DNA from: a bacterium | Lineage (GTDB): Bacteria; Patescibacteriota; Minisyncoccia; Phycocordibacterales; Phycocordibacteraceae | NCBI GenBank assembly: GCA_037200965.1 | Contig: JBBCGK010000001.1 | Span: 96,001 to 160,000, forward strand | DNA length: 64,000 nucleotides | Reading direction: 5' to 3' | Shown: piece after piece, positions 27,001 through 33,000 of the stretch | Position numbering within the stretch: position 1 is the first letter of the stretch | How the letters are laid out: each line of letters begins with the position of its first letter | Position numbers: made by a program

Positions 27001-30000
27001 GCAATACCGCGTTCTCGACCGCCAATTCGCAGATATACAACGGGCACGGGCATAACGCGATCGACATCGGCGCGCCTATCGGTACGCCGGTGCTCTCGGC
27101 GCTCGGGGGAACCGTGAAGGGCACGGGAAATACGGATGCCGTTCCCGGCTGCTATTCGTTCGGAAAGTGGGTGATGATTGATCACCCGAACGGCATCTCG
27201 ACCTTGTATGCGCATCTCTCAGAGATCGACGTATCGAAAGGGCAGGCCGTCACGCGCGGACAGCAGCTCGGCTATTCCGGCATGACCGGGTACGCGACCG
27301 GCCCGCATCTCCACTTCGGCGTTTATGCGACCCAGGGCACGCAGATCATGACCTTGCAGCAATTCCGCGGCGCGGTCACTCCCTGCGCGAACGCTACCAT
27401 GCCCGTGGCGGCGATCGACGCGTATTTGAATCCGCTTTCGTACTTGTAGACAATATAGAAAAATAAAGTAGAATGATCTTGTGCTGACTTAACGCAGGAG
27501 AGTATCTTGACAATCAAACTGTTACCGGTGCGCCGCCTGATGGCACCATCCTTCCCCTCAAAGCCTGTCGAGATGGCGCTCACTCTCGATACCCCGGAAG
27601 GAGAACTATTCCTTACGGGCGAATCTCGACGGAACCTCCGTAAGAAGATCGCGAGGCAACTTGCAAGGCTTGCCTACAATTCGGTCGAATTTGGAAAGGA
27701 TCGGGTTGTGTACATTGTGACTCCCGTGAACACGGAGAACGAAAGTTGCCTCGTCCTCGATTTGCGTGCCACAGAAAGCGCCTTCGATATGTGGGTGCGC
27801 GAAGGCACTCAATGCGCGGAGCAGGTTTCGCTGTTCGCCCAGGTGCTCGCAGCGGGAAACAAACCCAATCCAAGATTCCCGATAGCTTGGTGGGCTCCAA
27901 AACAACTCGTGTTCTGGTCTTTTCAGCGGAAGGTCGCCGACGCATTCTGTAACGCCGCTTCGGATCTACCGCTGATTCCGTGCATGTAACCGCTTCGTCT
28001 CCAGAACCCGCTTCGCGGCTTCGGCAGCGAAGCGGTTTCTTATTTATTCCTAAGATCGTGCGACTTCCACAGCGCAAGGCACGCATAGCTGCGGTGCGGG
28101 CTCCATGACTCTGCGATTTTTAGAAGCTTCTCGCGCGGAACGCCCTTCTTGAGTTTATAAATCCGCTCCATCGAGCGTACGAGGCCGAGATCGCCGACGG
28201 AGAAGACATCGGAGCGCCCGAGCGCGAAGATGAGGAACATCTCCGCCGTCCATGCGCCGATACCCCAAACCGAGCTTAAGGAGGCGATGGCCTCGGCTTC
28301 CGGGAGACGCTTGAGCGCGAGGAGGTCGAGAGACTTGGTTTCGACCGCCTCCGCAAGCGACTTGAGCGTCTTCGCCTTCGCTCCTGAAAGTCCCGCGGCG
28401 CGAAGGGACGGGAGGGAAGCGGCGAGGATCGCCGCGGGAGTAACGCTCCCGCCGCAGGCCGCTACGACGCGTTGCCATATCGCGCGGGCCGCGCCTGTCG
28501 CAAGCTGCTGGCCCACGACCGAGCGAGAGAGCCGCTCAAAGAGTCCTTGCCTAGTCCGTACCTGCCCGAGCTCCGGCGGAAGCTCCTTTCGGACGGCCCG
28601 GGCGGCCGCATGGAGCTTCGGGTCCGCCCGCCTGAAGTGCATAAGCGCCTTGTCCCGTCCGGTCATTACCCCCTATACTACTACCAATGCTGAAGCTCAT
28701 ATTCTGGATCGTCGTCGGCGTCCTGGCGCTCTCTTTCTTCGGTATTTCCCTTCGCGCCATCATCACCTCGCCGATCGGCCAGGACAACCTCGGCTTCCTA
28801 TGGATGCTCGTCGTCCAGGGCTGGGATGCGATCGTGCAGTTCTTCACCTCGCTCCTTCCGCACCAGTTCGTCTAACGTCCCCGCCGATGCAGAGAGGCTT
28901 CTCGACCCTGGAGGCCGTGCTCGCGATGGCAATATTCGTTTCCGCCATCGCCGCGGTTATGCTTACCGAGTCCGGAAACCAGTCGCTTCTTGCGGACGGC
29001 GCGCTTGCCGGCAGCGCAAGAGAAGATGCCCGGGCGCTCCTTGCCGAAGAAGCGGCTCGCGCACTCAAAGATTTCAATCTCGTGAATCCCATACGGAACG
29101 CTTCTGCGAGCGCATCCGCGCGCGTGTCGCTTCTGCCCGATTATCTGACCAAGCTCGTGACGGCCGCGGCAACGTGGAAGGATGAATTGGGCCGGACGCA
29201 CACCACCGAGCTTTCGACTCTTCTCACTAATTTCGAACACGCGACCGGCGGCGATACCTGCAGTTCCGCGCTCGAAGGCGACTGGAGCTCGCCGACAGCC
29301 AAAAGCTACGCGCTTTCTCCCGGAGATCTCCTTCCTGGCAATGAAATCGGCGCGGCGGTGAGCGGCCTCGATGCATACCACGACACGCTCTATGTCACAG
29401 CTGACGAAGGAAGCGGCGCCACGCTCTTCCTCTTCGATACGTCAAGCGAAGGCAAGCCCCGCTTTATCGCAAGCGTCGATAACGCGCGGGGAACCGATGG
29501 CGGGCTCGCGGGCGTCCTTGCCGCCGGAGATTATGCGTACCTCGCGGATAGCCACAGCCGCGATGCGGACTGCATGCCGGGTACCGACTGCGCGCAGCTT
29601 CAGGTCGCGGACGTGAAAGACCCGAAACGGCCGGAGATTGTCGCAAGCTATCTCATACCGACGACGACGCCCTCGTTCGTGAAAGGGTCGGGAGGACAGG
29701 CGGCGGGGAAAGCGCTCGCGTATCAGGACGGGTTTCTGTATCTCGGGCTTTCGAAGACCGCGAACGGGCCGGAATTCAATGTGATTGACGTGCGGGATCC
29801 CGGGTCCCCAAAATGGCTTGGCGGATACGGCATCGGCCGGAGCATAAACGCGATCGTTATTGACAGAGGCCATGCATACCTCTCGACCGACGATAACAAG
29901 AGCGGCGGGAGGGCGGTCGCGGTACTCGATATTAGCGACCCGAAGCATCCGTATCAGATCGCGAGCTGGAGCGCGCCCGGAGCCGGATTCGCAAACGGCA

Positions 30001-33000
30001 TACGGAAAATCGGCGATACCCTCTATCTGGGCCGCTCGTACGCAAGCGGCGCGCAGGAAGAATTCCATGAACTCGATGCATCCCGTCCGGAAGAAGGTCT
30101 TCCGATACTTGCAGGTGCCGACATCGGAACTGCCGCACATCACGCAAGCGTGCGATCGCTTATCATCCGCGACACGCTCGCTTTTCTTCTCACGAACGAT
30201 GATATCGAACTTTGGGACATCGGCGACGCGGAACATATCGGCCCCGCCGCCGCGCCGATACCGCTTCCGGAAGGAAGCCAGGGAATCGCGCTTGACTGTG
30301 AAGGCAACAGGCTTTATGCCGCTTCAAACGCGGGCGATACCGGCTACGTCACGATACTTTCCGCCCGCTAGCATGAAAGGCTTCACGCTCATCGAAATGC
30401 TCGTGTATCTGGGCCTTGTCACGCTCATCATGGCGGGCGTCACGGGAGCGGCGCTTAGTATCAGGGAATCGAACGGGCGGGATGCCGTCCGCGCGCTTAT
30501 AGCCGAGGAAGGGCTGTTTCTCCTCGCAAAGATCGACCAGGCGCTTGAGGAAGGGAAAGAAGAGACCCTGGTATGGGATGCGAAGGAGGAAACGCTCTCG
30601 CGTATGAGTGACCCGGGAGAAGCCGTACGGCTCAACGGCGGAAATGTGCGGGTATCCGCGTTTTCCCTTGAAATGATACCGGCCGCCCTGAACGCGCCCG
30701 CGCACACGAACGCGGCGCTTACGCTCGCCGCGACTTCCTCAAGCGGCGCGCTTCTTCGCCAACAGTTCACGACAACCTATTATGCAAAACCTTAGGCATC
30801 CTCGCGGATTCGCCGCGCTCATCTCCGTTCTTATCATCTGCGCCATTCTCGTCTCGATCACGCTCGCCGTCGGTCTTTCGTCCTTCTTCGCCCGGGCCGA
30901 TCTGCTCGATGCGGAAGGCAAGGCGATATCCCGGAATCTCGCGCGCGGATGCGTTGACGCCGCCATCCTTCGGCTTGCGAAGGACGGATCATACAGCCCG
31001 AAGGGCGAGCGGATCGCGGTCGGTGACAGGGGGTGCCGTATCGAGTCGATAACCTATGCCAGGAACAATGTGCTTGTCACCACAAGCGCGGAGGTGAACG
31101 GCACATATACGATTCTTCAAGCCGCGGTACGGGAGAAATCAGAAGCGCAGCGGATGAAGCCTGCTATCCCCATCTTCACCGTCCTCGATGTCGCCGAAAT
31201 CACGGAAGCGCCGTGATACATTTCCGATATGAAAACGAACGGCTTCACGCTCATCGAAATACTTATCGTCATCGGCATGATCGCCATACTGTCGGGCGTG
31301 GTGCTCGTCGCCGTGAATCCCGTCCGGCAGTTCGCGCAGGCCCGCAACACCCAGCGGACCGCGAACGTGAGCGCGATCTTAAACGCGATCGGCGAGCGCA
31401 TCGTCGACAACAAGGGCGTATTCCAGGGAGATGACGGATCGTGCAGCGCGGCGCTCCCGCAAAGCGCGACTGTCATGAAGTCGGGCGGAGGCTACGATAT
31501 CCGTTCCTGCCTCGTCCCGACCTACATCAGCGAACTCCCGTTTGACCCGCTTACGGGCTCGAATGCCTGCGACGGCGGCGCTTCCTGCAAAAGCTACGAC
31601 ACCGGGTATACCGTCCGGCAGGATTCCGAAACGCTCCGCATCAGCGTCTGCGCTCCGGAGGGGGCCGAGCCTGCGATCGAGGGAAGTTCGGAAATGTGCC
31701 TGACGAGGTAATAAAAATGGAAAACCGCTCCGCCAGGGGAGGCTGGCGAAGCGGCTCCACATGCGAAACGGTTATGCGTCCTCGGCGACGCCCAGCCTGA
31801 CCGGAATGATGCCGGACTTACCAAGGAACAGGCAGTTCAGGATCTTCTTCTCCGCGGCGTCGAGCAGCAGGAATACTACGATCCCGTCGACCCTCGTCCG
31901 CTTCGCCGCATAGGCGTTAAAGGCGTCGAGCGCGGCGTTCCTAGTGGCGTAGGAGCGGTCGTTCATCGGGTTCGAGGCGGTCATCCAGGTTTCAAGCTGG
32001 ACAAACGAATATGCTTCCTTGTCCAGGTATGTTCCCCTGAGTTCGAATCTGCCGGTGTCGAAGTGAAGCAGCAGGCGCGTCTCGTCGGGCGGTCCCGGGT
32101 CCGTAAACGCGCGCGAAGCTCCCTGCCAGTTATTGGCATAGAATTGCACCGTCGAGATCGCCGGAAGCTGCATCGTCTGAAACGCGCCCGGGTACACAAT
32201 TCGCATCAGCGCGTGGTCGCTCAAGTCGAAGACATCCGTGCCGCGCGCAAGCCAGAACTCGTTTTCGCCCTGATAGGGGACATCAAGCGTGACGGGTATG
32301 GTTTCACCCGGAGCATTGGCCTGGCAGGTGCCAAGGCCATAGGGCGTGATCACTCGTTTCGTTGCCATGGCGGCTATCCTTCTGTTGTGCGCTTCCAAGC
32401 GCGTTTCATCCGCTATAAAAGTGCCATTTTAGGCCCTATATGTCAAAGCCCGGGTGCTAAGAAGACCACGGCTTTCGGCTATTGACAAATTATGGTGGGT
32501 TTGCTATAGTAGCCCTACGAAGCGACCTTGCGTTGTTTCGTACCAAACCTTACATGAATCCACTTATTGCCCTAGTAGGGGCTTTTCTTTTGGCCGGTAA
32601 CGCCCAGGCGGCCCCTGCGCCCGAGCCTCTTCCTGCCATCGAGACACCTGCCTATGAGGTGAAGCTCACCGCGTATAATGCGGTGGCGGCCCAGACCGAC
32701 AATGACCCCTTCGTGACCGCTTCCGGCGCCTTCTCTAACCCCGAAGTCGTCGCGGCGCGCTCGAAGGACCTCGCGGACAAGCTCCCGTTCGGTACCATTA
32801 TCAGCATCGAACGCACGGCGGAAGCGACGCCGACCTGCGGCCTCAACCTGGTCGCGCACCAAGTCGGATACCGCGTCATCGCCGACAGCATGAATTCCCG
32901 CAAGGTGAACCAGGTAGACGTGCTCCTTAACCAGAACGATACCGTCTCGCACGAGGGCCGGGCCGTAAACCCAAGTCTCGTGCTCGGTATCTGCGACAGC

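Follow-up and report, generated by a model that had tools for sequence, protein, structure and literature searches.

A minor pilin fused to an LVIVD propeller as part of a probable compact type 4 filament system of Paceibacteria

In type 4 filaments the HIJK minor pilins form a tip complex whose cap is a subunit that lacks the glutamate at position +5 (Glu5), and the filaments grow from tip to base (PMC10191384). Modular pilins, which carry an additional domain, are displayed at the filament tip, where they act as adhesins, for example PilB of Streptococcus sanguinis (PMC8179133). In Saccharibacteria, deletion of PilX2, which has a seven-bladed propeller, approximately halves host binding while filaments remain (PMC11623550). 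Here we describe a cluster of four pilin-like genes, P1 to P4, on a 64,000-nucleotide stretch of DNA from an ultrasmall bacterium of the Patescibacteriota (assembly GCA_037200965.1, contig JBBCGK010000001.1, positions 96,001 to 160,000; hereafter the window). The first protein, P1, combines a pilin-type N-terminus with a beta-propeller of LVIVD repeats. We consider it rather likely that P1 to P4 are the subunits of a compact, type IV pilus-like filament system found throughout Paceibacteria, a class of Patescibacteria, and that P1 is an adhesin displayed at the tip on a core minor-pilin complex.

The closest described systems each share part of this arrangement. Like P1, modular type IV pilins such as S. 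sanguinis PilB (a vWA domain) and PilC (a lectin) have an N-terminal pilin module, a short linker and a bulky domain that is found beyond pilus biology, with predicted display at the tip (PMC8179133). However, PilB and PilC replace the H-I-J-K set, whereas the carrier of the P1 propeller is an I-type core minor pilin of such a set; and in that survey the LVIVD class is listed only as a motif of unknown function, without structure, operon context or test. PilX2 of the Saccharibacteria (TM7x) comes from the same phylum-level radiation and is, like P1, a minor pilin with a C-terminal seven-bladed propeller whose gene lies beside those for a major pilin and minor pilins of type II secretion system (T2SS) type (PMC11623550). 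The PilX2 repeats are RCC1 rather than LVIVD, and PilX2 is reportedly without a recognisable prepilin-peptidase signal whereas P1 has the canonical G↓FSTLE (the arrow separates leader from mature protein); the two are likened here on their descriptions.

In the type IVa pili (T4aP) of diderms, PilY1/PilC on PilHIJK (FimU-PilVWX) provides a tip beta-propeller on four core minor pilins, one of them lacking Glu5, with the gene order H-I-J-K, as we propose for P1. PilY1 is, however, a separate non-pilin protein with the propeller IPR008707, whereas the P1 propeller is covalently fused to an I-type pilin; P1 has no PilY1-family Pfam match, and PilY1 is not among the top structural matches listed. 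The T2SS supplies, with GspH-I-J-K, GspE and GspF, the best though sub-threshold matches for the ATPase, the platform protein, the H-like pilin, the I-type module and the K-type pilin of the Paceibacteria operon described below, and also shares with it the H-I-J-K order and a K subunit without Glu5. Unlike the T2SS, the Paceibacteria operon has no nearby secretin or GspC/L/M, its major pilin comes last rather than first and its ATPase is shorter at the N-terminus. GspI, unlike P1, has no extra domain.

The four open reading frames (ORFs) are tightly packed on the plus strand between positions 28887 and 31711 (Table 1), with 1 nt between P1 and P2, a 14-nt overlap of P2 and P3, and 12 nt between P3 and P4. 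An earlier note on this DNA had given these positions and quoted the N-termini, all of them correctly on our reading of the ORFs, and had described all four proteins as starting with class III (prepilin peptidase) signals. This description is borne out. Each protein shows the class III pattern of a short, positively charged leader with Gly at −1 and Phe at +1 (MQRG↓F, MKG↓F, ..HPRG↓F and MKTNG↓F for P1 to P4), and Glu5 is present in P1, P2 and P4 and absent from P3. P2 (24.0 bits) and P4 (23.3 bits) exceed the cut-off of 21.2 for Pfam N_methyl (PF07963), and P4 is also over the cut-off for NCBIfam TIGR02532. Pfam N_methyl gave no match for the P1 or P3 of the window; for these two proteins it is conservation throughout the family that identifies the signal.

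For P1, the consensus of 70 aligned homologs is (K/R)G↓FSTLE and then ∼20 hydrophobic residues; nearly all of them have G↓F(S/L)TLE, and Glu at +5 is kept in at least 90%, with only 6 of the 70 (∼9%) matching N_methyl. The P3 family begins G↓(F/Y)(I/V)AL with I, T, M or V as the next residue, and not one of 65 orthologs has Glu at +5; its absence is therefore a fixed trait of the family and not a local mutation. Glu5 is retained in 75 of 82 P2 orthologs and 57 of 63 P4 orthologs. Long N-terminal helices are predicted for P1 (residues 4-61) and P3 (residues 7-68). In the sister locus L085 (10001-11910), Ala replaces Gly at −1 in both P1 (MQRA↓FSTLE) and P2 (MRA↓FSLIE), which may affect processing, while P3 and P4 keep the Gly.

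According to the same note, P1 continues into repeats of the LVIVD type that were predicted to form a beta-propeller. We found four LVIVD motifs, LFLFDTSSEGKP at 180, LQVADVKDPKRP at 238, FNVIDVRDPGSP at 297 and VAVLDISDPKHP at 344. A search with Pfam LVIVD (PF08309 / IPR013211), which the note had suggested, left the P1 of the window under the threshold (17.5 bits, E 0.0026; cut-off 20.2), whereas 64 of the 70 homologs matched at E ≤ 0.001, the best with an E of 6.7e-19. The propeller is seen in the AlphaFold2 model of the 494-aa protein, calculated on the 70-sequence alignment, which is confident (pLDDT 93, pTM 0.89). The model has a minimal pilin module (i.e. helix 4-61 and a three-stranded sheet at 76-114) and, between residues 137 and 494, 27 strands arranged as seven four-stranded blades. 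From strand order only, the strand at 137-142 appears to complete the last blade. Two cysteines, Cys125 in the linker and Cys471 in the last blade, are invariant in the 70 homologs, a hint that a disulfide may hold propeller and pilin module together. The propeller is strongly acidic (pI 4.6, net charge −21), as it is throughout the family, where the median pI is 4.65 and 0 of 70 members lie above 7.

The structural matches of the propeller are generic and include dozens of WD40-type propellers. Enzymatic propellers are also among the neighbours, namely the Sphingobium phosphotriesterase 5hrm, virginiamycin B lyase and CylK, and modular pilins bearing peptidases are known (PMC8179133). It could be argued from these matches that P1 carries an enzyme, a hydrolase or a lyase, rather than a binding module. 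However, the enzymes match no better than dozens of non-enzymatic WD40-type propellers, at 9-15% identity, and neither Pfam nor NCBIfam recognised a catalytic family, making this reading extremely unlikely.

With a 12-sequence P1 alignment, 80 loci related to the window were retrieved, and these were annotated with iteratively built hidden Markov models; spot checks against precomputed Pfam labels agreed. The genes are in a fixed order: a T2SSE ATPase (∼390-480 aa), a T2SSF platform protein, a pilin of ∼150 aa (H0, H-like), P1, P2, P3 and P4. The ATPase, platform and H0 genes lie immediately upstream of P1 in all 63 loci with at least 3.2 kb of upstream flank, a count that includes L008 and L011, where apparent exceptions are artefacts of over-long ORF calls and H0 genes are present. 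Downstream of P1, P2 and P3 are found in 65 of 65 loci and a recognisable P4 in 53 of the 65. The ATPase of the relatives scores 503 bits with GspE, 488 with PilB, 250 with ComGA (cut-off 300) and 181 with PilT, and is without the N-terminal ∼100-170 residues of GspE/PilB. The platform protein best fits GspF/PilC (ComGB gives 149 bits, cut-off 240), and H0 best fits GspH. No secretin or GspC/L/M gene adjoins the operon in the 80 loci.

The subunits can be assigned to types in a similar manner, where the labels H, I, J and K denote the type that is resembled and not family membership; I and K are consistent across the family. The pilin module of P1 matched the I-subunit models ComGE (24 of 34 members), XpsI (17/34), PilV (7/34) and GspI (5/34), all below cut-off, and its profile gave only weak helix matches against PDB sequences. 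P2 produced a mixture of sub-threshold matches (n=61) to GspH (25), ComGF (24), ComGE (16), GspI (14) and GspJ (8). With P3, the only pilin family matched was GspK, in 3 of 55 orthologs with a best E of 5.4e-6; the P3 of the window gives an E of 0.12. The profiles of the P2 and P3 families returned only N-terminal-helix matches or noise from PDB sequences. Residues G9, C57 and C85 are invariant among the P3 orthologs, and a single-sequence AlphaFold2 model of P3 has helix 7-68 followed by a five-stranded sheet (pLDDT 75.6). The earlier note had observed the missing Glu5 correctly and had described the protein as pseudopilin-like; given that absence in every ortholog and the match to GspK alone, a presumed capping subunit of GspK/PilX type is the better label.

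P4 is the most conserved of the four proteins, with 43-63% identity to 52 orthologs and a nearly invariant N-terminal 60 residues. Its profile matches solved major pilins (geopilin, PpdD, PilE1, Myxococcus xanthus PilA, PAK pilin and GspG) with E values from 4.5e-8 to 0.015, and P4 is presumed to be the major pilin. Taking the subunit resemblances together with the gene order, the layout reads as ATPase-platform-H-I-J-K-major pilin, and it is the I-type subunit that bears the propeller. That the minor-pilin genes stand in H-I-J-K order beside the assembly genes holds at the level of the family; the window has I-J-K and the major pilin only.

Two further features of these loci were noted. In 18 of 65 loci (e.g. 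L005:10012-12027, L040:10064-13222 and L055:10131-14354) P3 is enlarged and, at 650-1400 aa, includes SpaA-like Ig domains, whereas the window has the short 144-aa form; filaments with an enlarged P3 would bear two bulky modules at the tip, the propeller and a long stalk. Genes for CAP (cysteine-rich secretory protein) proteins lie beside or near the pilus operon in eight relatives (L002, L004, L008, L027, L031, L040, L046 and L070), and the window has one at 49270-50277 (+). Their proximity may point to a link in function or to a partner that is secreted.

How such a system might work can be extrapolated from what is established for the filaments of T2SS, T4aP and Com systems. The subunits would be cleaved behind the Gly by a prepilin peptidase whose gene lies elsewhere. 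A priming complex of the H-like pilin, P1, P2 and P3 would become the tip of the filament, with the Glu5-less P3 on top, and the GspE/PilB-like ATPase and the platform protein would polymerise P4 beneath it. At the distal end the acidic propeller of P1 would bind a ligand, most likely a glycan or protein on the surface of a host or partner cell, with P1 playing the part of the separate propeller protein PilY1 in diderm T4aP. We place the propeller at the distal tip because the HIJK complex primes the filament and growth proceeds from tip to base; adhesion is the leading function because of the precedents of S. sanguinis PilB and Saccharibacteria PilX2.

The resemblance to the T2SS raises the alternative of a pseudopilus. 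Instead of an extended adhesive pilus, the cell, which has no outer membrane, would then have a short piston or a device for secretion, with the propeller recognising secreted cargo at the tip, as has been proposed for HIJK of the T2SS. The ATPase and platform proteins have their best scores with GspE and GspF, the H-I-J-K gene order is that of T2SS operons, the HIJK complex of the T2SS interacts with secreted effectors (PMC10191384), and secreted proteins with CAP or SpaA-like domains often flank the operon in relatives. However, PilB nearly equals GspE as a match for the ATPase (488 against 503 bits, with all scores below cut-off), neither a secretin nor GspC/L/M adjoins the operon in the 80 loci, and the P4 profile matches the major pilins of type IV pili (T4P) more strongly than GspG. 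The only propeller pilin of the phylum for which a function has been tested serves adhesion (PMC11623550). We therefore regard a secretion device as unlikely.

A DNA-uptake pilus of Com type, in which the propeller would be a DNA receptor at the tip, has its analogue in ComZ of Thermus thermophilus. Like P1, ComZ is a minor pilin with a large all-beta domain that is proposed to lie at the tip (PMC8179133). The ComZ domain is a beta-solenoid implicated in DNA binding, whereas the P1 propeller is strongly acidic, and its acidity across the family (pI 4.6 in the window and not above 7 in any of the 70 members) argues against direct binding of DNA. The ATPase fits ComGA far worse than GspE or PilB (250 against ∼500 bits), and the propeller-pilin system of Saccharibacteria does not contribute to competence (PMC11623550). 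A role in DNA uptake is quite improbable on these grounds.

The window itself departs from the family arrangement. No ATPase or platform homolog was found in the window by tblastn, and a crude motif scan found no ORF there with the GxGD[K/R] motif of a prepilin peptidase, in agreement with the earlier note, which had reported neither an assembly ATPase nor a prepilin peptidase in the window. Of pilB, pilC and pilD, which it had proposed to locate elsewhere in the genome, genes for an ATPase and a platform protein were located; the scan for a prepilin peptidase, which covered the window, located none. The P1 of the window is that of contig JAATEX010000063.1 in the metagenome-assembled genome (MAG) GCA_015655515.1, and the ATPase protein P0122 is encoded on contig JAATEX010000126.1 of the same assembly. 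On this second contig (locus L088) the order is ParB, ATPase, platform, H0 and then a zeta-toxin/AAA_33-like gene, and the motor genes are intact. The ParB-ATPase locus has a counterpart of 99.94% identity within a 960,259-bp contig of another assembly, and the exact P3 protein is on record for a contig of this length, too.

Among the ∼80 loci, the window and its sister L085 are the only ones without ATPase, platform and H0 before P1. The P1 of L085 is 60% identical to that of the window, and the two loci have a common synteny of MurG, GltX, an M23 peptidase, orf62 (a small upstream gene, Table 1) and P1-P4. In L086, which has the canonical operon, the order is ParB, ATPase, platform, H0, P1, P2 and P3. 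On the simplest reading of these gene orders, the ancestral operon was linked to parB and broke apart after H0 in this lineage, and P1-P4 moved behind orf62. The split is common to genomes that have diverged to 46-73% protein identity and is therefore old and maintained. The zeta-toxin/AAA_33-like kinase gene overlaps the end of H0 by 13 nt, both in the window's MAG (L088:9596-10342, with H0 at 9150-9608) and in L087 (10670-11416), and P1 overlaps the H0 gene by the same 13 nt in L086. With identical overlaps, the replacement was seemingly made exactly at the gene junction.

A second, paralogous copy of a complete operon in the genome was considered and was rejected for the nearest case. L086 (P0003) might have been a second copy in the same genome, coming from the same sample as L085, but its GC content is 65.6% compared to 54.5% for L085, so it belongs to a different organism. 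In the window's own MAG, H0 is followed by the zeta-toxin-like gene and not by a P1 paralog.

The cluster in the window could instead be a remnant, stranded when the operon broke up and no longer serving any filament. In its favour are the unusual position of the window and L085 among the ∼80 loci, the zeta-toxin-like gene that follows the H-like pilin at the original site and the IS30-like transposase gene 5 kb upstream of P1-P4. However, the four ORFs are intact and have kept their class III signals, invariant cysteines and LVIVD motifs, the split persists in a relative at 46-73% protein identity, and the genome also has intact genes for the ATPase, the platform and the H-like pilin. In other T4P systems it is common for minor-pilin genes to lie apart from the assembly genes. 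We find it very doubtful that the cluster is a remnant.

Several observations weigh against our preferred reading of P1-P4 as the subunits of an adhesive type 4 filament. All scores with the GspH/I/J/K, PilV/W/X and ComGD-GG equivalogs are far below the curated cut-offs. The J label of P2 is ambiguous, depending mainly on gene order, and a Foldseek search with the P3 model gave no match at E ≤ 0.001 and was thus uninformative for the K label. Because the structural matches of the propeller are generic, they point to no nameable ligand. No prepilin peptidase, retraction ATPase or PilMNO-like gene was located, the scan for the peptidase covering the window. The genes in the window are uncoupled from the assembly genes, and their co-expression is assumed.

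The earlier note had thought the pilin-propeller fusion a design of unusual kind, which overstates the case. P1 homologs form at least 120 clusters at 90% identity, mostly of ∼500 aa and labelled Paceibacterota, Pacebacteria or 'PulG/PilV/FimT-like', and an exhaustive search of 1.84 billion representatives gave at least 325 clusters at 50% identity (E ≤ 1e-30), essentially all matching from end to end. The 80 loci come from Kaiser-, Adler-, Nomura-, Doudna-, Wolfe-, Jorgensen-, Lipton-, Brenner-, Lloyd-, Nealson- and Zambryskibacteria and other Patescibacteria MAGs; 'uncultured Candidatus Saccharibacteria' and 'Gammaproteobacteria', which appear on many of the retrieved MAGs, are depositor labels. 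Dataset S1 of Raynaud et al. 2021 (PMC8179133) already has the architecture IPR012902 + IPR013211, a prepilin signature with LVIVD repeats, and by our own count it makes up 30 of the 1,219 modular pilins there, one of them a Falkowbacteria protein with 12-13 repeats. The text of the same work mentions a Falkowbacteria pilin with 12 copies of IPR013211, 'of unknown function', and a propeller minor pilin of Saccharibacteria has already been tied to host binding. Surveys that use signatures will under-count the P1 family and overlook most of it, since N_methyl is triggered by only 6 of 70 members.

P1 is therefore an uncharacterised addition to the modular type IV pilins, with a design that is common in Patescibacteria (the candidate phyla radiation) and already catalogued. 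Our literature search found no paper linking LVIVD with Patescibacteria, and none on the structure, operon context or role of pilin-LVIVD proteins. What is new here is the I-type place of P1 in a class-wide seven-gene operon, the strict absence of Glu5 from its K-type neighbour and the lineage-specific split of the operon.

The orf62 gene, a call in the public record, ends 11 nt before P1, and its product is 74% identical to that of the ORF at the same position in L085. It has no homolog in the 80 other loci and no family match, and is, on these comparisons, specific to the lineage with the split operon. We had considered that orf62 might be a degraded H-like pilin or a common part of the operon; the lack of a class III motif and of homologs in the 80 loci rules this out. 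A sigma-70-like promoter match found by a consensus scan (9/12 matches) directly upstream of orf62 is weak evidence for a possible start of an orf62-P1-P2-P3-P4 transcript. Downstream of the P4 stop and before the convergent gene, a GC-rich hairpin (16 pairs in a terminator-like scan) likely marks the end of the transcription unit; its role on the plus strand is inferred, as the scan reported the hairpin on the minus strand.

Table 1. Positions of the pilin-like genes and adjoining features within the window
Feature	Position	Strand	Description
Sigma-70-like promoter match	28650-28679	+	Directly upstream of orf62
orf62	28687-28875	+	62-aa hydrophobic protein
P1	28887-30371	+	494 aa; leader MQRG, mature start FSTLE; I-type minor pilin with seven-bladed LVIVD beta-propeller
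P1 pilin module	28887-29276	+	aa 1-130; class III signal, alpha1 helix 4-61, three-stranded sheet 76-114, linker Cys125
P1 propeller	29295-30368	+	aa 137-494; seven four-stranded blades; acidic, pI 4.6
P2	30373-30795	+	140 aa; MKG↓FTLIE; minor pilin, J position
P3	30782-31216	+	144 aa; ..HPRG↓FAALI, no Glu at +5; K-type minor pilin, presumed capping subunit
P4	31229-31711	+	160 aa; MKTNG↓FTLIE; presumed major pilin
GC-rich hairpin	31721-31758		16 bp; between P4 stop and convergent gene

Other features of the window lie on both sides of the cluster. An IS30-like transposase gene (HTH_38 and an rve integrase core) is found at 22660-23574 (+), ∼5 kb upstream of the relocated pilin genes; contig JAATEX010000063.1 starts inside it, which makes it a probable repeat at which short-read assemblies break. 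Just 3′ of the pilin genes are two ORFs without a Pfam match, at 31772-32398 (−) and 32482-33102 (+). The second is conserved in L085 (184 aa) and presumably resembles a 3D-domain cell-wall protein. At 34045-35230 (−) there is a receiver-only response regulator (120 aa, public call) with a 265-aa ORF that has no family match, and at this position L085 has a 705-aa MASE1-HisKA-HATPase-receiver hybrid kinase, which suggests that the hybrid kinase of the window was truncated or replaced.

At ∼38000-45500 there is a low-GC island (GC 0.35-0.48 compared to ∼0.60 elsewhere) that codes for several glycosyltransferases and for a PMT_2-like membrane protein of 648 aa; it has the look of a surface-glycan cluster gained by horizontal transfer. 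Two genes for Fic/DOC-domain proteins, at 36587-37774 and 45940-46581 (+), lie less than 10 kb apart on either side of it. The region 54775-62465, also of lower GC, contains a large serine recombinase (54775-56550, −), an AbiEi/AbiEii toxin-antitoxin pair (58547-60285), an EcoRI-like adenine methyltransferase (60290-61360) and a GmrSD_N+HNH nuclease (61362-62465), and is likely a mobile defence island.

A broader proposal, which we offer tentatively and do not favour at present, is that the ATPase-platform-H-I-J-K-major-pilin operon represents a distinct minimal class of type 4 filament specific to Paceibacteria. Such a class would have a GspE/PilB-like motor shortened at the N-terminus and no PilMNO, secretin or retraction ATPase in the operon; a PilY1-like propeller permanently fused to the I-type pilin would be the determinant by which these uncultivated episymbionts recognise a host or partner, and in lineages such as that of the window the genes for tip and shaft would have been separated from those for the motor. 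If this is true, the adhesive tip could be regulated on its own, or exchanged.

For pilus biology in general, P1 is an incremental case of a known theme, the display at the tip of a grafted binding module. The Paceibacteria account for a large part of the uncultivated Patescibacteria. To the question of how their cells find and hold partners, a single, nearly universal operon with one surface-exposed domain, the LVIVD propeller on the I-type pilin, brings a concrete candidate for host recognition and makes this question testable.

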